Translations under genes and position numbers: made by a program
Notes under the pieces: model-generated
Told to the model about the DNA's origin: nothing
The model's database searches: none
Seen by the model: the letters and a program-made list of their open reading frames with translations, nothing else
Shown here: positions 4,756 to 22,683 of the stretch, in pieces
How the letters are laid out: every line of letters begins with the position of its first letter
How positions within the stretch are numbered: the first letter of the stretch is position 1
IMG/VR virus record: IMGVR_UViG_2913137851_000001
Reading direction: 5' to 3' (one strand)
Length of the DNA stretch: 25,991 nucleotides
Source: a virus
Lineage: Duplodnaviria > Heunggongvirae > Uroviricota > Caudoviricetes

Positions 4756-4808
4756 GGGCGGCAGAGCAGTCACGGAGTAAAACTGATACCGCCAAACGTC
4801 ACCAGAAA
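4756..4808 (-). ncRNA. dicF: DicF small regulatory RNA
   Basis: Reverse complement of 4756-4808 reads TTTCTGGTGACGTTTGGCGGTATCAGTTTTACTCCGTGACTGCTCTGCCGCCC, matching recalled 53-nt DicF. It ends in a GC-rich stem followed by TTTTT (the + strand AAAAA at 4751-4755). Sits between ydfC and dicB as in K-12. Confidence 0.85.
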
Positions 4809-6339: not shown

Positions 6340-6570
6340 ATGCTTAAAACTGACGCTCTTTTGTATTTCGGTTCAAAAACAAAACTTGCACAAGCAGCAG
6401 GTATTCGTTTGGCTTCGCTTTATAGCTGGAAAGGGGATTTAGTTCCCGAAGGTCGCGCGATGCGTCTACAGGAGGCATCTGGCGGGGAGCTTCAGTATGA
6501 TCCCAAAGTTTATGATGAATATCGTAAGACGAAGCGGGCGGGGCGGTTGAACAATGAAAATCACTCCTGA
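6340..6570 (+). CDS. dicC: DicC, Cro-like regulator
   Basis: 76-aa ORF divergent from dicA (MLKTDALLYFGSKTKLAQAAGIRLASLYSWKGD...), consistent with recalled DicC. Confidence 0.8.
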   Translation: MLKTDALLYFGSKTKLAQAAGIRLASLYSWKGDLVPEGRAMRLQEASGGELQYDPKVYDEYRKTKRAGRLNNENHS

Positions 6571-7009
6571 ACAGGCTCGTGAGGCTCTGGATGCCTGGAT
6601 ATGTCGACCAGGAATGACACAGGAGCAGGCGACGATATTAATCACTGAAGCATTCTGGGCTTTGAAAGAGCGCCCGAACATCGATGTTCAGCGTGTCACA
6701 TATGAAGGTGGCGCGATTGATCAGCGAGCGCTTGGCGTTAATCGAGTGAAGATATTTGAACGCTGGAAGGCTATCGACACCAGGGATAAGCGTGAAAAGT
6801 TCACGGCGCTAGTGCCTGCAATTATGGAGGCTATCCGGATTAATGATTTCAGGTTGTATCGTGAAATTACTGACGGAAAAAGCATCACGTGCATGATCGC
6901 CGGGTTAAACAAAGAATATGGCGATGTGGTGGAGTCCGGACTGCTTTTTGCTGATCCTGCCGTAGTGGATCGTGAAACATTACTCATACCACGAAATAAA
7001 AGACGATGA
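6554..7009 (+). CDS. YdaT/YdfX-like (CII-like domain) protein
   Basis: 151-aa ORF overlapping the dicC 3' end by 17 nt. Occupies the position taken by ydaT after the cro-like gene in Rac-type immunity regions. Family assignment rests on weak recalled similarity. Confidence 0.5.
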   Translation: MKITPEQAREALDAWICRPGMTQEQATILITEAFWALKERPNIDVQRVTYEGGAIDQRALGVNRVKIFERWKAIDTRDKREKFTALVPAIMEAIRINDFRLYREITDGKSITCMIAGLNKEYGDVVESGLLFADPAVVDRETLLIPRNKRR

Positions 7010-7020
7010 GGAAGAACAAA

Positions 7021-7480
7021 GTGGCTGATTTTTGTTCAGCTAAATATAACATCAGTTTTGAAGAGCGGGATGAACTATTAATGGACTATGGTGAGTTACG
7101 CGGTGGAAGTGCTGCTGATGTCGAATCCTAGCGTGATGACTATGAAGCGGGAAAAACTCCGGTCGAAGCATATTGTGATGAGTGGGGCGATGAATGAGCG
7201 AGATTAATTATCAGGAAGGGCATGAAACGGCGGGGCAAGCAAAACCAGTGGCATGGCGATATCGCTACGTGAAAAAAGGCGTTACGGACTTTCAGGGGAA
7301 GTAGTGGTCTGGTGACTGGAAATATGTACCGAAAAAAGAGGATTGTAACGACAGGCCGAACTATCAAATTCAGGCCTTATTCACTGCCTCACCAGTCCCA
7401 GTTACATCAGAAGAACTGGTTAAAGCTGTGCACTTTTATGAACAACTAAAACGCGAAAATCCACCAACATCCGGCAACTA
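7021..7480 (+). pseudogene. Decayed early-region ORFs (in-frame amber stop and frameshift)
   Basis: Hand translation: GTG 7021 ... in-frame TAG at 7129-7131 ... TGA at 7195-7197 overlapping ATG 7194 (ATGA). A 36-codon ORF runs 7194-7304 (MSEINYQEGHETAGQAKPVAWRYRYVKKGVTDFQGK). Coding-like sequence continues in another frame to about 7480. Confidence 0.4.
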
Positions 7481-7735
7481 GATTAATGGATTAACTATGT
7501 CGGTTAAACGACCAGCCAACTGAAAAAGCGGAAACCTGATTACAGGTTGCCAGATAAGGCAATGAGCTACCTGGCGCGGAACGGACTGATAAGTATGGGG
7601 AATGTTTTACGATGAACCTTTAGACTAAAGAGTTTGTAACGCTATGTAAGTGATTTTTTCTGGTTTAGATATTTATATGTCCGGCCAAATTGAGGTGTGT
7701 TTAAATGTAATTGCACATTGATTGTAGGAGGAATA

Positions 7736-7915
7736 ATGAAAAACGCATTGCAGTTTTTGTTTGTTGCGTTCTGGTTGTTCGCATCATGTATGCCCATCAT
7801 CTTCACAGCAAGGTATATGGAAAAAGTTGATGTTTTGATATTAATATTTGGATATATAAATGCCCTTTTTTTAGGGGTGTTCATGGCGGTCATGTGCATT
7901 GAATACTGGCGGTAA
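7736..7915 (+). CDS. Small (59-aa) predicted two-helix membrane protein
   Basis: AGGAGG at 7726-7731 precedes ATG 7736. Product MKNALQFLFVAFWLFASCMPIIFTARYMEKVDVLILIFGYINALFLGVFMAVMCIEYWR has two hydrophobic stretches. Sits in an AT-rich island (about 7600-7920). Confidence 0.4.
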   Translation: MKNALQFLFVAFWLFASCMPIIFTARYMEKVDVLILIFGYINALFLGVFMAVMCIEYWR

Positions 7916-8042
7916 ATACAGCGAACTCCATTGGTTTAGTTGGATATTTACTGTGCTGGACAAAAACGGTTTGCGGGGAAATCTTAGTTAAGTAGAATGA
8001 CTGCGGGTGCTTGAGGCTATCTGCCTCGGGCATGGACACCAA

Positions 8043-8046
8043 CGGC
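8043..8046. repeat. Target-site duplication (CGGC), left copy
   Basis: CGGC immediately flanks the IS terminus TGACCTGCC at 8047 and is repeated at 9268-9271. Confidence 0.7.
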
Positions 8047-8075
8047 TGACCTGCCCCCACGATTAGATACAACAC

Positions 8076-8909
8076 TCAGTTAGTAACGTCGGAATCTTCA
8101 TTCTCAGAATGACCCTTTCTCCAGCCCGCTGCAAATTCAGACGGTGTCTGATAATTCAGCGTGGAGTGCGGGCGGCATTCGTTATAATCCTGCCGCCAGT
8201 CATTAATAATTTTCCTGGCATGAACGATATCGCTGAACCAGTGCTCATTCAAACATTCATCGCGAAATCGTCCGTTAAAGCTCTCAATAAATCCGTTCTG
8301 CGTTGGCTTGCCCGGCTGGATTAAGCGCAACTCAACACCATGCTCAAAGGCCCATTGATCCAGTGCACGGCAAGTGAACTCCGGCCCCTGGTCAGTTCTT
8401 ATCGTCGCCGGATAGCCTCGAAACAGTGCAATGCTGTCCAGAATACGCGTGACCTGAACGCCTGAAATCCCAAAGGCAACAGTGACCGTCAGGCATTCCT
8501 TTGTGAAATCATCGACGCAGGTAAGACACTTGATCCTGCGACCGGTGGAAAGTGCGTCCATGACGAAATCCATCGACCAGGTCAGATTGGGCGCCGCCGG
8601 ACGGAGCAGCGGCAGACGTTCTGTTGCCAGCCCTTTACGACGTCTTCTGCGTTTTACGCCCAGGCCACTGAGGTGATAAAGCCGGTACACGCGCTTATGA
8701 TTAACATGAAGCCCTTCACGGCGCAGCAACTGCCAAATACGACGGTAGCCAAAACGCCTGCGCTCCAGTGCCAGCTCAGTGATGCGCCCTGATAAATGCG
8801 CATCAGCAGCCGGACGGTGAGCCTCATAGCGGCAGGTCGACAGGGATAAACCTGTAAGCCTGCAGGCACGACGTTGCGACAGACCGGTCGCATCACACAT
8901 CAACATCAC
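8076..8909 (-). CDS. IS3-family transposase OrfB (DDE integrase core)
   Basis: 277-aa ORF with a DDE/rve-like region (D ... D ... E with K/R, e.g. [19 protein letters not shown]). In the -1 frame relative to orfA. Confidence 0.8.
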
Positions 8910-8932
8910 GGCTTCCCGCTTCTGGTCTGTCG

Positions 8933-9196
8933 TCAGTACTTTCGCCCAAGAGCCACCTGAAGCGCCTCTTTATCCAGCATGGCTTCGGCAAGCAGCTTCT
9001 TGAGTCTGGTGTTCTCTTCCTCAAGCGACTTCAGGCGCTTAACTTCAGGCACCTCCATACCGCCATACTTCTTACGCCAGGTGTAAAACGTGGCATCGGA
9101 AATGGCATGCTTGCGGCAGAGTTCACGGGCGGGTACCCCAGCTTCGGCTTCGCGGAGAATACTGATGATCTGTTCGTCGGAAAAACGCTTCTTCAT
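8933..9196 (-). CDS. IS3-family transposase OrfA (HTH)
   Basis: 87 aa, [46 protein letters not shown]..., the typical IS3/IS407-type OrfA with HTH and leucine zipper. Confidence 0.8.
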
Positions 9197-9267
9197 GGGG
9201 ATGTCCTCATGTGGCTTATGAAGACATTACTAACATCGGGGTGTACTAATCAACGGGGAGCAGGTCA

Positions 9268-9271
9268 CGGC
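9268..9271. repeat. Target-site duplication (CGGC), right copy
   Basis: CGGC immediately after the IS terminus ...CAGGTCA at 9261-9267. Confidence 0.7.
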
Positions 9272-9474
9272 AGATAGAGAAAAGCCCCAGTTAACATTAC
9301 GCGTCCTGCAAGACGCTTAACATTAATCTGAGGCCAATTTCATGCTAGACACATGTAGGTTAGCCTCTTACGTGCCGAAAGGCACGGAGAAGCAGGCTAT
9401 TGTTAACACCAAGCTGTAATGTCCCCTTTGAACCATTCTAAAATGTCCCCAGACAATTCTCTGGGGGATTTTTC

Positions 9475-10788
9475 ATGATCAAAGAGACTGTTACGATGAG
9501 TCATAAGGAACTCCACCGACTTCAGATTATTCAGGAACAAGCTGCGGCACGCATTGGCATTTCTATTCGGCAGGTTAAACGTCTGGTGCAACGGTATAGA
9601 AATGAAGGGCCTTCTGGTCTGGTTTCCCACCGACGTGGAAAGCGTCCTAATAATTCCTTTTCTACTGAATTCAGAGCAACAGTAATTTCACTCCTCAAAG
9701 GCCGTTACGCTGATTTTGGACCTACGTTTGCGTGCGAAAAATTGCGCGAGATACACGGTTTATCTTTATCCGTTGAAACTCTCAGAAAGTGGATGATAGA
9801 AGAGGGGTTATGGCGTGAACGCCGTCGTAAAATTGCCCGTATATATCAACGCCGCATGCGACGACCATCTTACGGTGAACTGATCCAGATTGATGGCTCA
9901 CCTCATGACTGGTTTGAAAATCGAGGCCCCAGATGTACACTGATCGTTTTCATTGATGATGCCACCAGTGCGTTGATGGCGTTGCGTTTTGTGCCTGCTG
10001 AAACAACCCGGGCTTACATGGAAACCCTCCGGGGTTACCTTAATGATCATGGCGTACCGCTCGCTCTCTACTCTGATAGACACAGTATATTCAGGGTAAA
10101 TAACCCAGAGCGGGAAGGTGAGCTGACCCAGTTCACTCGTGCGATAAAGACACTGGGCATCGAGCCAATCCATGCCAACAGCCCGCAGGCAAAAGGGCGG
10201 GTAGAGCGCGCCAATCAGACACTACAGGACAGGCTGGTCAAAGAAATGCGGCTTCAGAATATCAGTGATATTGAAACAGCAAATGCATGGTTGCCGACCT
10301 TTATTGAAGCCTATAACAACCGGTTCGCTACGTCGCCTCGTACTACTGATAATGCTCATCTTGATGTGCACCATTCTGAAGAGGAACTGGGTTATATCTT
10401 CAGCCTACAGGCGAAGCGCGTTCTGTCTAAAAATCTCACTTTCCAGTACAAAAGCAGTGCGTTTCAGGTACGCAGTGAGGGCCGGGGATATCGACTTAGG
10501 CATTCGGTTGTTACTGTATGCGAGAACTTTGACGGTGAAATTAACGTTCTGTATGACGGGAAAGCGCTGGGCTGGGAAAAGTATGTTGATGGCCCGGAGC
10601 CTATACCACTGGATGATGAAAAGAGTGTCCATGAACGAGTGGATAATGCCCGTATTGATTTACGCTCAAAATACTATGTTAAACCTAAAGCTGACCATCC
10701 CTGGCTTACGCGCCGAACGCAAAGTCATCAGCAAGTTAAGCCCCCGAAGTTACCTAAAAAGAAGCCTGATCCCGATAAAAAAGATTGA
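9475..10788 (+). CDS. DDE transposase (IS481/ISNCY-like; N-terminal HTH plus integrase-core domain)
   Basis: 437-aa ORF with N-terminal HTH (ISIRQVKRLVQRY) and a central rve-like DDE region (IQIDGS...D, FIDDATS, SDRHSIF, KGRVERANQTL). Ends of the element were not identifiable by eye. Confidence 0.75.
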   Translation: MIKETVTMSHKELHRLQIIQEQAAARIGISIRQVKRLVQRYRNEGPSGLVSHRRGKRPNNSFSTEFRATVISLLKGRYADFGPTFACEKLREIHGLSLSVETLRKWMIEEGLWRERRRKIARIYQRRMRRPSYGELIQIDGSPHDWFENRGPRCTLIVFIDDATSALMALRFVPAETTRAYMETLRGYLNDHGVPLALYSDRHSIFRVNNPEREGELTQFTRAIKTLGIEPIHANSPQAKGRVERANQTLQDRLVKEMRLQNISDIETANAWLPTFIEAYNNRFATSPRTTDNAHLDVHHSEEELGYIFSLQAKRVLSKNLTFQYKSSAFQVRSEGRGYRLRHSVVTVCENFDGEINVLYDGKALGWEKYVDGPEPIPLDDEKSVHERVDNARIDLRSKYYVKPKADHPWLTRRTQSHQQVKPPKLPKKKPDPDKKD

Positions 10789-11224
10789 AACCAAGATCGA
10801 TTCGGTTGAGTGCATATCCATTCATAGGGTAGATTCTTAAGTCGCGTTTCTGGTGTTCATTTTCGGGTGGTTTGTTACTTGTTTTACCGGGGATATGCCA
10901 GAAACGCGCTGAGTCAGTCTGGGCGGTGCGCGTAATGAGGCGTTATGGTAAATAGCCTATGCTAATGTCCGCTAAGAGCAAGAAGCGGAAGTTGGCAGTT
11001 TTGTGGACTGTCCCCACAAAAGTGACTACAGAAATAGTTGCAATTCATAATTGATCATGGGTTGTCAGTTAAACTCGTGGCGATTTAAATAGACTAATTG
11101 GGAGTGCGTCCATTACTTATATCTTGTAATGTTAACTATCAGAAATGATACAAAGATAATATGTCTTTAAAGAAAAGGCTGATGGCGAAAAGTGGCCCGA
11201 TGAGGGCCACAATACGGCTGTCAC

Positions 11225-11557
11225 TTAGACGTAAATATCAATGGTGCCAGCGGTATTTGTATCGTCTTTTTTCTCTTCTTTTTTATCAGGCTGAACTGTC
11301 GCGTCTTCATTCTTTTTCTCTGCCTGCTGCCTTAACAACTGCTCCAGTTGAGCCCAGAGGCTTTCAATTTGCTTCTGTACCAATGCAGCCATTTCTTTTT
11401 TCTGCTGTGTCGTCATCCCCTCTTCCGATGAGATTTTCCCAAGCTTTTCAGTCAGCACCTGAATTTGTCTTGTGATTTTGGCTATTTCTGATGTTCCTTC
11501 CGGGGCGGAGTTGTTTGAAATAACGGTTGAGGTATTTCCCTGAATTGTGACAGACAT
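11225..11557 (-). CDS. flxA: FlxA (FliA-regulated protein)
   Basis: 110-aa product MSVTIQGNTSTVISNNSAPEGTSEIAKITRQIQVLTEKLGK... matches recalled FlxA. A sigma-28-type promoter lies directly upstream. Confidence 0.85.
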   Translation of the reverse strand: MSVTIQGNTSTVISNNSAPEGTSEIAKITRQIQVLTEKLGKISSEEGMTTQQKKEMAALVQKQIESLWAQLEQLLRQQAEKKNEDATVQPDKKEEKKDDTNTAGTIDIYV

Positions 11558-11580
11558 AGATTTCTCCTTTTAAAAAAGCA

Positions 11581-11607
11581 CTATCGGCATGCACAAAAAA
11601 ATCTTTA
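11581..11607 (-). promoter_or_regulatory. Sigma-28 (FliA) promoter of flxA
   Basis: On the minus strand reads TAAAGATT-N12-GCCGATAG (consensus TAAAGTTT-N11-GCCGATAA), about 25 nt upstream of the flxA ATG. Confidence 0.7.
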
Positions 11608-11759
11608 ATCGTATTTCTTGTGTCATTAATTGTTTGATGTTCAGATTGTTTTCCTCGCGGGCTGGCGCGCCTCAGAAAGTAAAGCTTGTTGACAGGGGTA
11701 AACGTTCGGCAATAATTTTCTGCCGCATGCGGGTGTTGCATAAAACGTGTTACGTTCCT

Positions 11760-12065
11760 TTATCGACAGGTCAGGTCACCGCTCACCCGCCGACGAGAAA
11801 GCAACACTGACATGCTAAAGCAAAAAATAGATGAATAAGTTGAGTTGTGCATATGTAGCCTGACCGTCACAAAGTATATGGTGTCTGTACCAGTAAGATG
11901 ATGGCCGGACTCTTTAAAAACGAGCTGACCTGCACAATACAGGATGGACTTAGCAATGGCTGCTCCTGGCACAAAGCGGACAGTGATCACCGTTCTTACG
12001 ACTACTTTCTGACTTCCTTCGTGACTTGCCCTAAGCATGTTGTAGTGCGATACTTGTAATGACAT
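11760..12065 (-). CDS. Hypothetical protein (YdfV-like by position and length)
   Basis: 101-aa ORF divergent from relB. Its start lies inside the relB operator. Composition is not strongly protein-like, so this call is weak. Confidence 0.3.
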   Translation of the reverse strand: MSLQVSHYNMLRASHEGSQKVVVRTVITVRFVPGAAIAKSILYCAGQLVFKESGHHLTGTDTIYFVTVRLHMHNSTYSSIFCFSMSVLLSRRRVSGDLTCR

Positions 12066-12078
12066 TTGTAATTACAAG
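12053..12078 (+). promoter_or_regulatory. relBE operator (relO) inverted repeats
   Basis: CTTGTAATGACATTTGTAATTACAAG: repeated TTGTAAT / ATTACAA hexads immediately upstream of the relB SD. Confidence 0.7.
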
Positions 12079-12089
12079 AGGTGTAAGAC

Positions 12090-12329
12090 ATGGGTAGCAT
12101 TAACCTGCGTATTGACGATGAACTTAAAGCGCGTTCTTACGCCGCGCTTGAAAAAATGGGTGTAACTCCTTCTGAAGCGCTTCGTCTCATGCTCGAGTAT
12201 ATCGCTGACAATGAACGCTTGCCGTTCAAACAGACACTCCTGAGTGATGAAGATGCTGAACTTGTGGAGATAGTGAAAGAACGGCTTCGTAATCCTAAGC
12301 CAGTACGTGTGACGCTGGATGAACTCTGA
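12090..12329 (+). CDS. relB: RelB antitoxin
   Basis: 79-aa product MGSINLRIDDELKARSYAALEKMGVTPSEALRLMLEYIADNERLPFKQTLLSDEDAELVEIVKERLRNPKPVRVTLDEL matches recalled RelB. AGAGGTG SD. Confidence 0.92.
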   Translation: MGSINLRIDDELKARSYAALEKMGVTPSEALRLMLEYIADNERLPFKQTLLSDEDAELVEIVKERLRNPKPVRVTLDEL

Positions 12330-12616
12330 TGGCGTATTTTCTGGATTTTGACGAGCGGGCACTAAAGGAATGGCGAAAGCTGGGCTCGACGGTACGTGAA
12401 CAGTTGAAAAAGAAGCTGGTTGAAGTACTTAAGTCACCCCGGATTGAAGCAAACAAGCTCCGTGGTATGCCTGATTGTTACAAGATTAAGCTCCGGTCTT
12501 CAGGCTATCGCCTTGTATACCAGGTTATAGACGAGAAAGTTGTCGTTTTCGTGATTTCTGTTGGGAAAAGAGAACGCTCGGAAGTATATAGCGAGGCGGT
12601 CAAACGCATTCTCTGA
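12329..12616 (+). CDS. relE: RelE mRNA-interferase toxin
   Basis: 95-aa product MAYFLDFDERALKEWRKLGSTVREQLKKKLVEVLKSPRIEANKLRGMPDCYKIKLRSSGYRLVYQVIDEKVVVFVISVGKRERSEVYSEAVKRIL matches recalled RelE. Start overlaps the relB stop (TGATG). Confidence 0.92.
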   Translation: MAYFLDFDERALKEWRKLGSTVREQLKKKLVEVLKSPRIEANKLRGMPDCYKIKLRSSGYRLVYQVIDEKVVVFVISVGKRERSEVYSEAVKRIL

Positions 12617-12687
12617 ACCAAAGCATGACATCTCTGTTTCGCACCGAAGGTGACACTTCTGCTTTGCGTTGACAGGAGAAGCAGGCT

Positions 12688-12843
12688 ATGAAGCAGCAAA
12701 AGGCGATGTTAATCGCCCTGATCGTCATCTGTTTAACCGTCATAGTGACGGCACTGGTAACGAGGAAAGACCTCTGCGAGGTACGAATCCGAACCGGCCA
12801 GACGGAGGTCGCTGTCTTCACAGCTTACGAACCTGAGGAGTAA
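12688..12843 (+). CDS. hokD: HokD (RelF) Hok-family small membrane toxin
   Basis: Below the ORF-track size cut-off; translated by hand as MKQQKAMLIALIVICLTVIVTALVTRKDLCEVRIRTGQTEVAVFTAYEPEE (51 aa). AGGAGA SD upstream. Confidence 0.85.
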   Translation: MKQQKAMLIALIVICLTVIVTALVTRKDLCEVRIRTGQTEVAVFTAYEPEE

Positions 12844-12911
12844 GAGACCCGGCGGGGGAGAAATCCCTCGCCACCTCTGATGTGGCAGGCATCCTCAACG
12901 CACCCGCACTT

Positions 12912-12933
12912 AACCCGCTTCGGCGGGTTTTTG
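12912..12933 (+). terminator. Rho-independent terminator after relBE-hokD
   Basis: ACCCGC-TTCG-GCGGGT hairpin followed by TTTTTGTTTTT. Confidence 0.7.
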
Positions 12934-13059
12934 TTTTTATTTTCAACGCGTTTGAAGTTCTGGACGGTGCCGGAATAGAATCAAAAATACTTAAGTAGCG
13001 CGCAGGGATAAGAGGGATGGTCCCTTAAAGGGGAGAGCTAATTATCCGGAAGGATTCTG

Positions 13060-13311
13060 ATGATGAACATCGAAGAACTGCGTAAAATTTTTTGTGAAGA
13101 TGGCCTCTATGCTGTGTGCGTTGAAAATGGAAATCTTGTTAGTCATTACCGCATTATGTGTTTGCGAAAGAATGGGGCTGCGTTAATTAATTTTGTGGAT
13201 GCTCGGGTCACGGACGGATTTATCTTGCGCGAAGGTGAGTTTGTCACTTCATTACAGGCATTGAAAGAGATCGGAATAAAAGCTGGCTTTTCTGCTTTTT
13301 CAGGAGAATAA
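13060..13311 (+). CDS. rem: Rem (small prophage protein)
   Basis: 83-aa ORF MMNIEELRKIFCEDGLYAVCVENGNLVSHYRIMCLRKNGAALINFVDARVTDGFILREGEFVTSLQALKEIGIKAGFSAFSGE, consistent with recalled Rem. GGAAGGA SD. Confidence 0.7.
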   Translation: MMNIEELRKIFCEDGLYAVCVENGNLVSHYRIMCLRKNGAALINFVDARVTDGFILREGEFVTSLQALKEIGIKAGFSAFSGE

Positions 13312-13377
13312 ACTCATCTACAATCTTGCGCGGGGCTGAACTCCCGCTGAGTAACACCGTGCCACCGGAGAAAACCG

Positions 13378-13656
13378 ATGGCACGCAACGCAAAATATTA
13401 CAATTCTGATAATTCGCCCGTTCTTGCCTGCACGCACGGGCGGTATTCTCACGCATTCAAGTCTGAATGGTTCCAGCACCCTCCATGCACTGCAGAACAG
13501 GCCGAATGGCTGATTCATTCTTACCGCAGGCGCGGGTTCGAGGTTAAGAAAGCTCTCAGTCTCGACTATCGGCACTGGATAATCTCTGTCAGGCTGCCTT
13601 ATTCCGAACGCCCACCACGTGCGTCCCGCACTTTCCAGCAACGGATCTGGAGGTAA
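13378..13656 (+). CDS. Hypothetical 92-aa protein, translationally coupled to ydfU
   Basis: GGAGA SD then ATG at 13378. Its last codons (..GGAGGTAA) supply the SD for the ydfU GTG start 1 nt downstream. Product contains Cys/His residues (CTHGRYSH ... HPPC). Confidence 0.55.
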   Translation: MARNAKYYNSDNSPVLACTHGRYSHAFKSEWFQHPPCTAEQAEWLIHSYRRRGFEVKKALSLDYRHWIISVRLPYSERPPRASRTFQQRIWR

Positions 13657-13657
13657 C

Positions 13658-14707
13658 GTGCGGGTATTACTTAGACCTGTTCTGGTGCCTGAGCTTGGGC
13701 TGGTGGTCCTTAAGCCGGGCCGTGAATCCATACAGATATTTCATAATCCTCGAGTGCTGGTGGAACCGGAACCAAAAAGCATGCGTAATCTGCCATCCGG
13801 AGTCGTTCCTGCCGTTCGCCAGCCGCTGGCGGAAGACAAAACATTGCTGCCGTTTTTTAGTAACGAACGGGTGATTCGTGCTGCTGGCGGCGTTGGCGCA
13901 TTGTCCGACTGGCTATTACGTCATGTTACATCCTGCCAGTGGCCTAATGGCGATTACCATCACACTGAAACAGTCATTCACCGTTATGGTACCGGCGCAA
14001 TGGTGTTGTGCTGGCACTGCGACAACCAACTGCGTGACCAGACATCGGAATCACTGGAGCTGCTTGCTCAACAAAATCTGACAGCATGGGTGATTGACGT
14101 CATCCGTCACGCAATAAGCGGTACGCAGGAGCGGGAATTATCTTTGGCTGAATTATCCTGGTGGGCGGTCTGCAATCAGGTGGTGGATGCACTACCTGAG
14201 GCTGTATCGCGTCGTTCGCTGGGATTACCAGCGGAAAAAATCTGCTCGGTGTACCGCGAAAGCGACATCGTACCGGGAGAGCAGACCGCCACCAGCATAT
14301 TGAAACAACGCACAAAAAATCTTGCACCGTTGCCTTACGCCCACCAGCAACAAAAATCACCACAGGAAAAGACGGTGGTAAGCATCACCGTTGATCCAGA
14401 GTCTCCGGAATCTTTCATGAAGCTGCCTAAACGTCGCCGCTGGGTTAAGGAGAAATACACACGTTGGGTTAAGACACAGCCGTGTGCTTGCTGCGGTATG
14501 CCAGCCGACGATCCGCATCATCTGATTGGTCACGGGCAGGGCGGAATGGGAACAAAAGCACATGATCTCTTTGTGTTGCCTTTGTGCAGAAAGCATCACA
14601 ACGAGCTGCATACGGATACAGTGGCATTTGAAGATAAGTATGGCTCCCAACTGGAGCTGATATTTCGTTTTATCGATCGCGCGCTGACAATTGGCGTACT
14701 GGCGTAA
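13658..14707 (+). CDS. ydfU: YdfU (DUF968-type protein with C-terminal Cys/His-rich, HNH-like motif)
   Basis: 349 aa if started at GTG 13658 (GGAGG SD), matching the recalled K-12 length. C-terminus CACCGMPADDPHHLIGHGQGG ... CRKHHNELH. Confidence 0.7.
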   Translation: MRVLLRPVLVPELGLVVLKPGRESIQIFHNPRVLVEPEPKSMRNLPSGVVPAVRQPLAEDKTLLPFFSNERVIRAAGGVGALSDWLLRHVTSCQWPNGDYHHTETVIHRYGTGAMVLCWHCDNQLRDQTSESLELLAQQNLTAWVIDVIRHAISGTQERELSLAELSWWAVCNQVVDALPEAVSRRSLGLPAEKICSVYRESDIVPGEQTATSILKQRTKNLAPLPYAHQQQKSPQEKTVVSITVDPESPESFMKLPKRRRWVKEKYTRWVKTQPCACCGMPADDPHHLIGHGQGGMGTKAHDLFVLPLCRKHHNELHTDTVAFEDKYGSQLELIFRFIDRALTIGVLA

Positions 14708-16107: not shown

Positions 16108-16407
16108 AAAAATTCCTTAATACTGATAACTTGGCGCACTATACACACGTTCCTGAAGAAAGCTATAGTTTTTTGATGGGGTTGAAGATGGCTGGATGTC
16201 TAAAATAAACATTGCTTCATATGTTCAACTATGCGTTAATGATTGCGTCGGTTTGAAGAACAGACGATATACGAAGTAGTTTACTAAAGCAGTTCTCATT
16301 TCAGGTGTTATTCACTTATTCCTTCTTTGAGTCTCTCCAATTAAGTACGAAGTCGTTTCTGTTATGCAAACCATTTATGCCGAAAGGCTCAAGTTAAGGA
16401 ATGTAGA

Positions 16408-16623
16408 ATGTCAAATAAAATGACTGGTTTAGTAAAATGGTTTAACGCTGATAAAGGTTTCGGCTTTATTTCTCCTGTTGATGGTAGTAAAGATGTGTTT
16501 GTGCATTTTTCTGCGATTCAGAATGATAATTATCGAACCTTATTTGAAGGTCAAAAGGTTACCTTCTCTATAGAGAGTGGTGCTAAAGGTCCTGCAGCAG
16601 CAAATGTCATCATTACTGATTAA
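16408..16623 (+). CDS. cspB: Cold-shock protein CspB
   Basis: 71-aa product [71 protein letters not shown], the CspA family with RNP1/RNP2 motifs. Confidence 0.9.
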
Positions 16624-16903
16624 AATTCATCGCTCGTCTGTATACGATAACGAAGAAGGCTGATGCCTGAGTAGAGATACGGACAGAGTAGTGAATATTG
16701 GATCTCTTTAATAAAAAGTAAGGAGGTCCAATACATGAAACAATGGCTAGCATATTTGGCAAAATCTTAATCAGGAAAAGTATGCTAACCATTGTGGTGA
16801 AGTGCAGGTTTGCTGCATGAATAGTTTTACAGCAGAAGCTAACTGCTGGCATGGCAAAACAAAGTGCGTAAGTGGATGACTCCCACAAAAAGCACCACAA
16901 TCT

Positions 16904-18932: not shown

Positions 18933-19182
18933 GGTAATATTAAATCGGAACATTTACATCGCGGAATGTAAAATTTAAATAAAAAGGACTCTTCCATGAG
19001 CCAAAATTCCTGAAATCTTAAGGGTAAGATAAAAGGTCTTAATCAGAATGACACGTTTTATTAATAAATAAAGCTATTCTTTCATTGCTGTGTTTTTCTT
19101 TACAAAAGTAATCCTTGCTATGGGTGGTTAATCATGCGTTAATGGTGTTCTGGTTTGTTACAAATTTATCTGAAGCAGTCAT

Positions 19183-19191
19183 TGTTATAAT
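19183..19191 (+). promoter_or_regulatory. Extended -10 promoter element upstream of cspI
   Basis: TGtTATAAT about 100 nt upstream of the cspI ATG. The -35 is weak. Transcription start was not determined. Confidence 0.4.
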
Positions 19192-19294
19192 TTTATTATT
19201 TGTACCTCTTGAGATTTCCTTGTTGGTTTTTCTCTCTGATATTTTTTTTCGGACCATTCTGCCCAAGGGCTAATTTCTTCAAAAGGTAATAATT

Positions 19295-19507
19295 ATGTCT
19301 AACAAAATGACTGGTTTAGTGAAATGGTTTAACCCTGAAAAAGGTTTTGGTTTCATCACGCCGAAAGATGGCAGCAAAGATGTGTTTGTCCATTTCTCAG
19401 CAATTCAGAGCAACGATTTCAAAACATTAACTGAGAATCAGGAAGTTGAATTTGGTATTGAGAACGGACCTAAAGGTCCTGCCGCTGTTCATGTAGTGGC
19501 GCTTTGA
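19295..19507 (+). CDS. cspI: Cold-shock protein CspI
   Basis: 70-aa product [82 protein letters not shown] as in cspA-type leaders. Confidence 0.9.
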
Positions 19508-19710
19508 GGTAGACAATATTACAAACCATATTCACTTTAGATGCCCGTGTTGTCATGGTTCCCAGTATAGAACATCATCTTTTGATGTTTCTGACATGAA
19601 TCCTTTCGGGGCAAAATGTATCTTTTGTAAATCAATGATGATTACATTTGATAATATTTCACAATACTTAAATGCCAGCCGTCTGTCGTTGGATTTAAAA
19701 AAGTGAAAAT

Positions 19711-22108: not shown

Positions 22109-22683
22109 TGGCATTCAGAATGAGTGAACAACCACGGACCATAAAAATTTATAATCTGCTGGCCGGAACTAATGAATTTATTGGTGAAGGTGATGCATAT
22201 ATTCCGCCTCATACAGGTCTGCCAGCAAACAGTACCGATATTGCACCGCCAGATATTCCGGCTGGCTTCGTGGCTGTTTTCAACAGTGATGAGTCATCGT
22301 GGCATCTCGTTGAAGATCATCGGGGTAAAACGGTTTATGACGTGGCTTCCGGCGACGCGTTATTTATTTCTGAACTCGGTCCGTTACCGGAAAATGTTAC
22401 CTGGTTATCGCCGGAAGGGGAGTTTCAGAAGTGGAACGGCACAGCCTGGGTGAAGGATACGGAAGCAGAAAAACTGTTCCGGATCCGGGAGGCGGAAGAA
22501 ACAAAAAACAACCTGATGCAGGTAGCCAGTGAGCATATTGCGCCGCTTCAGGATGCTGCAGATCTGGAAATTGCAACGGAGGAAGAAATCTCGTTGCTGG
22601 AAGCATGGAAAAAGTATCGGGTATTGCTGAACCGTGTTGATACGTCAACTGCACAGGATATTGAATGGCCAGCACTGCCGTAG
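22108..22683 (+). CDS. tfaQ: Tail-fibre assembly chaperone
   Basis: 191-aa ORF starting at the stop of the tail-fibre gene (ATAATGG overlap); typical Tfa N-terminus ([17 protein letters not shown]...). Confidence 0.8.

Follow-up and report, generated by a model that had tools for sequence, protein, structure and literature searches.

A relBE-carrying transposon in the ribosome-binding region of a hok/sok locus as the probable origin of the relB-relE-hokD operon of the Qin prophage

Background

The relBEF operon of the Qin cryptic prophage of Escherichia coli joins a type II toxin-antitoxin (TA) pair, relB-relE, to relF (hokD), a gene for a type I toxin of the Hok family. The name relF dates from 1985-86. 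In the references cited within PMC3598666 and PMC9841398, relF (hokD) appears as the hok homologue of the relB operon. Here we describe the operon in a viral DNA of 25,991 nt (IMG/VR record IMGVR_UViG_2913137851_000001, Caudoviricetes), the whole of which we call the window. We propose that hokD was very probably orphaned by the insertion of a relBE-carrying transposon into the ribosome-binding region of a hok/sok locus, which would have left it dependent on read-through from relBE.

Much of the behavior of the operon has been published. Northern blots with relB, relE and relF probes detected a single full-length relBEF mRNA, which was lost when the promoter PrelBEF was deleted, and after the action of endoribonuclease toxins the relF part of the mRNA accumulated as its most abundant fragment (PMC3598666). 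Toxicity on overexpression has been reported for the hokD coding sequence (bioRxiv 10.1101/2025.08.07.668861). In the hok family, ribosomes translating mok relieve a block at the hok start codon, and hok translation requires this coupling (PMC9841398). hokD is counted among the five hok genes of E. coli K-12, and is regarded as put out of action by a genomic rearrangement and as being without components of the canonical system (PMC12214031). A review states that relBE integration cut an ancestral frame of 70 codons to 51 codons (PMC6379469). For the transposase family considered below, the insertion sequence (IS) ISEsa1 is catalogued with a length of 1,609 bp, inverted repeats matching at 15/22 positions and no detectable target duplication (Harmer & Hall 2023, PMC10132070).

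The relB-relE-hokD operon in the window

In the window, which comes from an E. coli C-type genome, positions 12053-12939 are the known relBEF operon of the cryptic prophage Qin (features in Table 1). Over 11950-13000 the window agrees at 100% with the E. coli C strains WG5, C122 and NCTC122 and at 99.9% (1,051 bp) with K-12 MG1655, and in these genomes the segment is annotated as ydfV, relB, relE and hokD. K-12 has the same genes, spacing, operator and terminator; the sole difference is at 12431, where the window has A and K-12 has G, leading to the replacement E35K in the RelE of the window. The plasmid copies described below encode the K-12-type RelE protein (WP_000323025.1). The original prediction, made from the letters of the DNA, presented a type II pair that carries a Hok toxin gene on the same transcript. 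Both the operon and its co-transcription had already been published, so the finding as written was already known, and the prediction missed that the arrangement had been described.

The structural details of that prediction held. The identities of relB, relE and hokD were confirmed by Pfam matches and RefSeq annotation. The relB stop and the relE start share one base in TGATG (12327-12331), the distance from the relE stop to the hokD start is exactly 71 nt, and hokD has its own Shine-Dalgarno sequence (SD), GGAG at 12675-12678, 9 nt ahead of the ATG. The inverted repeat upstream of relB covers the ATG (12063-12065, minus strand) of the divergent 101-codon open reading frame (ORF) ydfV, as had been claimed; from established knowledge of relBE autoregulation we take this repeat to be relO. 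With a RelB-family antitoxin gene upstream, a translationally linked RelE/ParE-type toxin gene and a palindromic operator over the promoter, the pair belongs to the type II RelBE family. An autoregulatory operator is published for the K-12 locus, whose one different base lies within relE. A terminator scan of 11900-13100 identified the hairpin at 12912-12929 as the sole terminator-like site, as predicted for the operon end, and found none between relE and hokD; the placing of all three genes on one transcript also agrees with the northern blots (PMC3598666).

hokD stands apart from the hok control region

Next, we asked which parts of a hok/sok system accompany hokD. The original prediction had seen neither a Sok-like promoter nor a mok frame there, and had proposed a search for antisense promoter elements in 12620-12700, folding of the hokD leader and comparison with the hok/sok family. 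The Rfam sok/hok-leader model (RF01794), which begins at tac and runs through the leader to the hok AUG, found nothing in 11000-14000 at a limit as loose as E<=10; three hokD-annotated loci that do not contain relBE (L002-L004), taken as positive controls, scored 104-113 bits. A scan for sigma-70-like promoters found no site over its threshold on either strand of 12620-12700. The codon at 12670-12672 in the hokD frame is TGA, and thus no mok-type extension of hokD is possible. An ORF of 55 amino acids in the +1 frame (12669-12836, starting with TTG) was considered as a mok remnant and rejected: it matched neither DUF5431 nor any other Pfam family, against 92 bits for a remnant on a plasmid. 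In all, a toxin ORF, the fold-back inhibitory (fbi) element and the terminator were found at hokD, while a promoter of its own with tac and ucb, a mok frame, and a Sok gene with its target were missing. hokD is a decapitated, orphaned hok gene that keeps its SD, ORF, fbi element and terminator, and it falls outside the functional hok/sok class.

The usual form of the locus was seen in a megablast survey of 5,426 E. coli genomes. The hokD region was matched in 4,717 of these, and relE was matched as well in 1,159. In about 3,500 genomes hokD occurs without relBE, and there homology to the window begins exactly at 12674. These relBE-less prophage loci encode an identical Hok protein (WP_000813254.1), are identical in sequence from the SD onward, including the fbi element and the terminator, and occupy the same prophage position, between replication genes and ydfU/Q. 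They have a promoter, TTGGCG-17-TAGAAT (found by the scan in L002), the tac sequence GGGTGCTTGAGG, and a 70-codon ORF that extends hok in frame and is the mok frame of this subfamily. In the window, by contrast, inserted DNA keeps the promoter, tac, ucb, the mok start, and the Sok target and promoter at a distance of 3.3-4.7 kb from hok. Since these leader parts are physically separated from hok, hokD cannot be under Sok control or mok coupling.

The missing leader is present in the window, in two pieces. A motif search found an exact match to the tac dodecamer at 8005-8016, and blastn with canonical leaders aligned 7939-8049 and 9267-9400. The first piece (7971-8046) shares 96% identity with the leader of L004, a relBE-less locus, and the second (9268-9400) shares 98.5% with that of L002. 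The second piece closes with GGAGAAGCAGGCTAT (9386-9400), whose last two bases already belong to the hok start codon. RF01794 matched at 9256-9401 (51.3 bits, E=4e-10), outside the hokD mRNA. Hence the earlier statement that no Sok promoter or mok frame is present stands for the surroundings of hokD, but does not stand for the window, which contains both at 9268-9400, 3.3 kb upstream. The original prediction had held that such canonical parts would make this a standard hok/sok locus; because the transposon splits them from hokD, they do not.

Between the two leader pieces lies an IS3-family element of the IS1222 type (8047-9267). It is complete, with orfA of 87 and orfB of 277 amino acids, both matching NCBIfam transpos_IS3, ends TGACCTGC...GCAGGTCA, and an Rfam match to the IS1222 programmed-frameshift element (156.6 bits).

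At position 9385 the leader remnant reads GGCACGGAG, compared with GGCAAGGAG in canonical loci, which would change the putative Sok -35 hexamer from TTGCCT to GTGCCT. The same change occurs in a Shigella flexneri locus (L025). A published Sok promoter mutation has been placed in dcb (PMC9841398).

A 3,274-bp transposon between the leader and hokD

The DNA between the second leader piece and hokD has the organization of a transposon (9401-12674), with a transposase gene on the left, flxA and part of ydfV in the middle, and relBE with the right end. It is flanked by exact 15-bp direct repeats, of which the right copy supplies the hokD SD and the first two bases of its start codon. The outer ends are TGTTAACACC... 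at 9401 and ...GCGTTGACA, finishing at 12674. The terminal inverted repeats are imperfect, with 21/28 positions matching in the register set by the flanking repeat; the element starts with TGTTAACACCAAGCTGTAATGTCCCCTT, and its end reads TGTCAACGCAAAGCAGAAGTGTCACCTT on the other strand. Related records annotate the transposase as "IS1202-like element ISEsa1 family transposase". The TGT...ACA ends, the large DDE transposase of the family and the flanking duplication place the element in the IS1202 family (ISNCY), and the independent insertions described below, with different cargo and targets, point to its mobility.

The element has conserved arms on the left (9401-10993) and right (11963-12674), and its middle is variable cargo. 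The plasmid elements lack flxA, and they become homologous to the window again only from 11963 onward. In every complete element relBE lies just inside the right end, as an invariant part and not as variable cargo. Two other delimitations were rejected. Likeness to GCTTTGCG and CCGAAGGT suggested that 12617-12673 could be a diverged hok leader; however, the 58 nt recur almost unchanged ahead of unrelated hok genes and of one non-hok target, and form the inverted-repeat partner of 9401-9428. With 1-2 substitutions in some copies, they abut five different right-hand targets, four of which are hok genes. The 1.6-kb extent of ISEsa1 was also set aside: homology between copies stops at about 10979-10993, where neither an inverted repeat nor a duplication is found, and the true right end lies at 12674.

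The insertion could be reversed in silico. When the transposon was removed with one copy of its repeat, and the IS3-family element with one copy of CGGC, a hok mRNA of 422 nt resulted that is 98.8% identical to that of L002 and has an open 70-codon mok-hok frame. In both the restored mRNA and the canonical L002 mRNA, pairing of tac with fbi closes the minimum-energy fold.

K-12 has lost much of this arrangement. The window still has 3.77 kb that is missing there, in which the left half of the transposon and the leader of hok lie. The K-12 deletion corresponds to 6834-10603 (junction at L001 2655/2656); the IS3-family element went with it, as did the leader and most of the transposase gene. In K-12, ydfW is a C-terminal remnant consisting of the last 49 transposase codons, and ydfX is the truncated N-terminal part of a 151-aa ORF found in the window at 6554-7009. 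As a consequence of the deletion, only the right half of the insertion history is left in K-12. The leader remnant, the full element and hokD are retained together in 759 E. coli genomes.

Independent insertions and preference for hok

The same module occurs at other hok genes. In 648 plasmid records, for the most part of Klebsiella, Enterobacter and Citrobacter, relBE is followed by the 71-nt spacer and a different, R1-like hok; the plasmid modules share 11963-12692 of the window at 98.6% identity. Besides the window element (3,274 bp, duplication GGAGAAGCAGGCTAT, 15/15, at a prophage hokD-type hok), we delimited an element of 14,445 bp in the Klebsiella plasmid pKPN-3967 (L011; duplication GGAGAAAAAGGCTAT, 15/15, at an R1-like hok), one of 6,093 bp (L014/L024; duplication GGAGAAGAAGGCCAT, 15/15, at another hok), one of 4,487 bp (L015; 13-bp duplication, at another hok), and one of 2,575 bp at a non-hok site (L012; 13/15 flanking repeat, GGATTCAC..CGGAT). 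In 12015-24783 of L011 the pKPN-3967 element has the same transposon backbone, with nickel (ncrABCY) and chromate (chrBA) resistance genes as cargo. In the same plasmid, ISKpn38 is inserted 30 bp within the left end.

Left-end junctions were sampled from plasmids and from one genome per species. A hok leader stood in the same position and orientation at 16 of the 20 informative junctions, with eight distinct leader variants. The other four comprised one inverted hok, in Citrobacter portucalensis (L023, 6792), where the left end lies against the hok start region, and three non-hok sites (L012, L018 and L027). At six left junctions a leader match at the Rfam gathering score ended exactly at the element. 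The same element family thus appears, from these comparisons, to have hit the hok ribosome-binding site repeatedly on plasmids and prophages, swapping the type I control region for a type II module.

Tn3-family elements can also carry type II TA pairs beside their transposition module. The likeness is that the TA pair belongs to the element; unlike Tn3-family elements, the element described here has a transposase of another family, and its TA operon points outward, past the element end, into a captured gene for a type I toxin. Its closest described relatives are the IS1202/ISNCY group (ISAjo2, IS1202, ISEsa1; PMC10132070), with which it shares the transposase family, the TGT...ACA ends and imperfect repeats of about 24-28 bp. 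A repeated internal motif near the left end of the window element recalls the transposase-binding sites of the IS1202 family. The long duplication and the strict preference for target and orientation recall ISAjo2 at pdif sites (PMC10132070). In contrast to ISEsa1 as catalogued, the right end lies beyond relBE, the cargo ranges from 0.97 to 10.5 kb, duplications measure 13-15 bp and the target is the hok ribosome-binding site. The comparison suggests that the duplication of ISEsa1 was missed because its real right end lies beyond relBE. We found no paper on hok targeting or on relBE carriage by an ISEsa1-like element, Pedersen & Gerdes 1999 lying outside the literature covered.

Predicted control of hokD

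hokD has no transcript apart from the relBE mRNA, whose 3' end it forms and which starts from the RelB/RelE-autoregulated promoter at relO (PMC3598666). Since this mRNA carries no Sok target, hokD would not be subject to Sok. Thermodynamic folding of the hokD leader predicted that the start-codon region (12683-12691) pairs with 12818-12826 with a probability of about 0.9, a pairing common to all hok mRNAs, and equivalent pairing was predicted in 6/6 junction contexts with different hok sequences. In several contexts UCUCU in the transposon end (12631-12635) was predicted to pair with the SD. Truncation from the 3' end produced no clear change in the predicted accessibility of the hokD SD and AUG. 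In these models, hokD is probably a read-through passenger that is inefficiently translated, because the start codon is paired and no upstream frame brings ribosomes across it. The suggestion that hokD is controlled by read-through from relBE and by mRNA folding therefore gained support, from published data for read-through (PMC3598666) and from predicted pairing for folding.

The fbi element and the terminal stem-loop have the same sequence as in canonical loci, where fbi closes on tac in the minimum-energy fold. The transposon end UGCGUUGA (12665-12672) is perfectly complementary to the fbi core UCAACGCA (12895-12902), and the two were predicted to pair in the window with a probability of about 0.85. 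As a surrogate tac, however, the transposon end was rejected: pairing with fbi was not predicted at other transposon-hok junctions, and this window-specific match is not to be relied on.

Weighing the origin and the role of hokD

According to the insertion hypothesis, a 3,274-bp transposon with an ISEsa1-like transposase and outward-facing relBE would have entered a canonical hok/sok locus of a prophage, between the SD and the start codon of hok. The integration would have duplicated the 15 bp GGAGAAGCAGGCTAT, the right copy becoming the hokD SD, and the TGA in the transposon end would have closed the mok frame. The detached leader would have stayed at 7971-9400, to be split later by the IS3-family element, and K-12 would afterwards have deleted 6834-10603. 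On sequence comparison, the "rearrangement" at hokD is an insertion, not an unspecified rearrangement. The structural part of this account, comprising the element limits, the duplication and the preference for hok, we hold with high confidence. The joint proposition that "ISEsa1" is the left arm of relBE transposons which specifically recognize the hok/sok initiation region, that targeting is active, and that this is unpublished has about an even chance of being right.

Two other origins of the arrangement were considered. That hokD is a standard hok/sok locus whose neighboring mok frame and Sok gene were overlooked is hardly credible. Its SD, ORF, fbi element and terminator are typical of the family, and a weak -35/-10-like pair (TTAACA-18-TAGCCT) lies on the minus strand at 12714-12683; but the same pair occurs within the hok ORF of canonical loci and is therefore not a Sok promoter. 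The leader model, which exceeded 100 bits on the controls, found nothing at E<=10, the promoter scan was empty, the hokD frame is closed by the TGA at 12670-12672, and the +1 ORF has no DUF5431 match. It is also improbable that homologous or illegitimate recombination between a plasmid relBE-hok and a prophage hok formed the junction, with the 15-bp repeat representing two hok SD regions. The high identity of the plasmid modules (98.6% over 11963-12692) and a hok SD region conserved enough for a crossover would allow for it. However, the repeat flanks a TGT...ACA unit whose left end adjoins the cognate leader, each of four independent elements has a duplication matching its own hok variant, excision restores the target precisely, and even the non-hok insertion has a 13/15 flanking repeat.

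Two further readings concern expression. One would make hokD a third toxin in use, translated on RelB degradation or derepression and leading to growth arrest, killing or persistence. An intact ORF, a protein identical to that of functional-type loci, a GGAG well spaced from the ATG, the toxicity of the overexpressed coding sequence (bioRxiv 10.1101/2025.08.07.668861) and the abundance of the relF fragment after toxin cleavage (PMC3598666) speak for such a role. We nevertheless regard it as unlikely, given that the family needs a mok coupling which is impossible here (PMC9841398), that hokD is described as inactivated (PMC12214031), and that the start codon is predicted to be paired in every context, with a probability of about 0.9, and the SD to pair with UCUCU (12631-12635) in several. 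The other reading gives hokD its own promoter, built on the outward-facing perfect -35 hexamer TTGACA with which the element ends (12669-12674). Hybrid promoters are often created at IS ends. Still, an own promoter is very improbable: no -10-like hexamer lies 16-18 nt downstream, where 12692-12697 reads AGCAGC, the scan found none, and the transcript would begin within the hokD ORF. A strain with PrelBEF deleted did keep a weak constitutive transcript seen with relE and relF probes, but it also hybridized to relE, and the authors credit a newly created promoter (PMC3598666).

Several points weigh against the insertion hypothesis itself. We infer transposition of the relBE element from comparison alone, and our delimitation contradicts the catalogue entry of ISEsa1 (PMC10132070). 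The transposase of the window is 9 aa shorter than most plasmid copies and may thus be inactive. The Qin copy could have arisen by recombination with a plasmid copy and not by direct transposition. The Sok promoter was placed by family conservation and by PMC9841398, rather than by mapping of its hexamers, and the claims about hokD translation are predictions of thermodynamic folding. Finally, Pedersen & Gerdes 1999 may have resolved part of the hokD rearrangement.

If the joint proposition on ISEsa1 is true, each insertion would silence a type I toxin by uncoupling hok from mok, drop Sok control, and install a type II module that reads into the orphaned hok. This would amount to a programmed swap of addiction systems, of which K-12 relBEF would be a relic, and it would explain why no duplication was seen for ISEsa1 as well as how the "major genetic rearrangement" at hokD came about. 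As such, the operon is textbook TA material; the value of the window lies in the E. coli C-type context that K-12 has lost, in which an unexplained rearrangement may be read as a precise, reversible event, the entry of a transposon into the hok ribosome-binding site with duplication of 15 bp. If the preference for hok is real, it would give the TnsB-like IS1202 family a new case of target-site-specific transposition, and would show how one addiction module can take the place of another on plasmids, carriers of metal resistance among them. The linkage of relBE with hokD in K-12 would then reflect history and not design, which bears on phenotypes ascribed to relBEF.

Features of the locus and other observations

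Table 1. Positions of the hok leader pieces, the transposon and the relBE-hokD operon in the window
Feature	Position	Strand	Description
hok promoter and leader, part 1	7971-8046	+	-10 TAGAAT 7993-7998; tac GGGTGCTTGAGG 8005-8016; first 42 nt of hok mRNA leader
IS3-family element (IS1222-type)	8047-9267	-	1,221 bp, splits hok leader; 4-bp duplication CGGC at 8043-8046 and 9268-9271
hok leader, part 2	9268-9400	+	mok SD GAGG 9330-9333; mok ATG 9342-9344; Sok target; dcb GCCTCTTAC 9363-9371
Putative Sok promoter		-	-10 TAACCT, complement of 9357-9362; -35 GTGCCT, complement of 9380-9385
Target-site duplication, left copy	9386-9400		GGAGAAGCAGGCTAT; exact direct repeat; abuts left inverted repeat
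Transposon	9401-12674	+	3,274 bp; TGT...ACA ends; transposase left, flxA and ydfV part, relBE and right end
Transposase	9475-10788	+	437 aa; NCBIfam NF033594 ISNCY family, 456 bits (cut-off 250)
flxA	11225-11557	-	Pfam FlxA, 53.8 bits; variable cargo of window copy
ydfV ORF	11760-12065	-	101 codons, divergent from relB; straddles boundary of cargo and conserved arm at 11963
relO-type operator	12053-12078		Inverted repeat CTTGTAAT-N10-ATTACAAG with palindrome TTGTAATTACAA inside; read off the sequence
relB antitoxin	12090-12329	+	79 aa; Pfam RelB PF04221, 112.3 bits, full length; RefSeq annotation agrees
relE toxin	12329-12616	+	95 aa; Pfam ParE_toxin PF05016, 49.5 bits
Transposon right end	12617-12674		Inverted repeat 12647-12674 and possible second transposase-binding repeat; supplies TGA 12670-12672
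Target-site duplication, right copy	12675-12689		GGAGAAGCAGGCTAT; 15/15; gives hokD SD GGAG and first two start-codon bases
hokD (relF)	12688-12843	+	51 aa; Pfam HOK_GEF PF01848, 82.9 bits
fbi element	12893-12905	+	CCTCAACGCACCC; tac partner now 4.9 kb off, on separate transcript
Intrinsic terminator of hok mRNA	12912-12939	+	Hairpin 12912-12929, 7-bp stem with 5 G-C pairs, then T run; now ends relBE-hokD transcript

The ORF ydfV had no protein-family match in profile searches, and other elements conserve no more of it than the first 20-39 codons; possibly it is not a real gene. Within hokD, the Tyr47 codon lies in the TadA-type context CTTACGAA (12822-12831). A-to-I editing of hokD mRNA at about 6% has been reported at a Tyr codon in a TACG context, changing Tyr to Cys (PMC12214031); the edited A corresponds to 12827 here.

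In the Rfam search of 11000-14000 at E<=10, sub-threshold matches to isrK, rsmX and P9 fell on the hok terminator; these are terminator look-alikes and were taken as chance. Above the gathering score, Rfam matches in the window included the small RNA DicF (4756-4807, minus strand) and, among 16247-16639, 19149-19534 and 22451-22649 (all on the plus strand), cspA-type thermoregulator 5' untranslated regions and the IS009 RNA. The two cspA-type regions are presumably those of the cspB/cspI-type genes of Qin.

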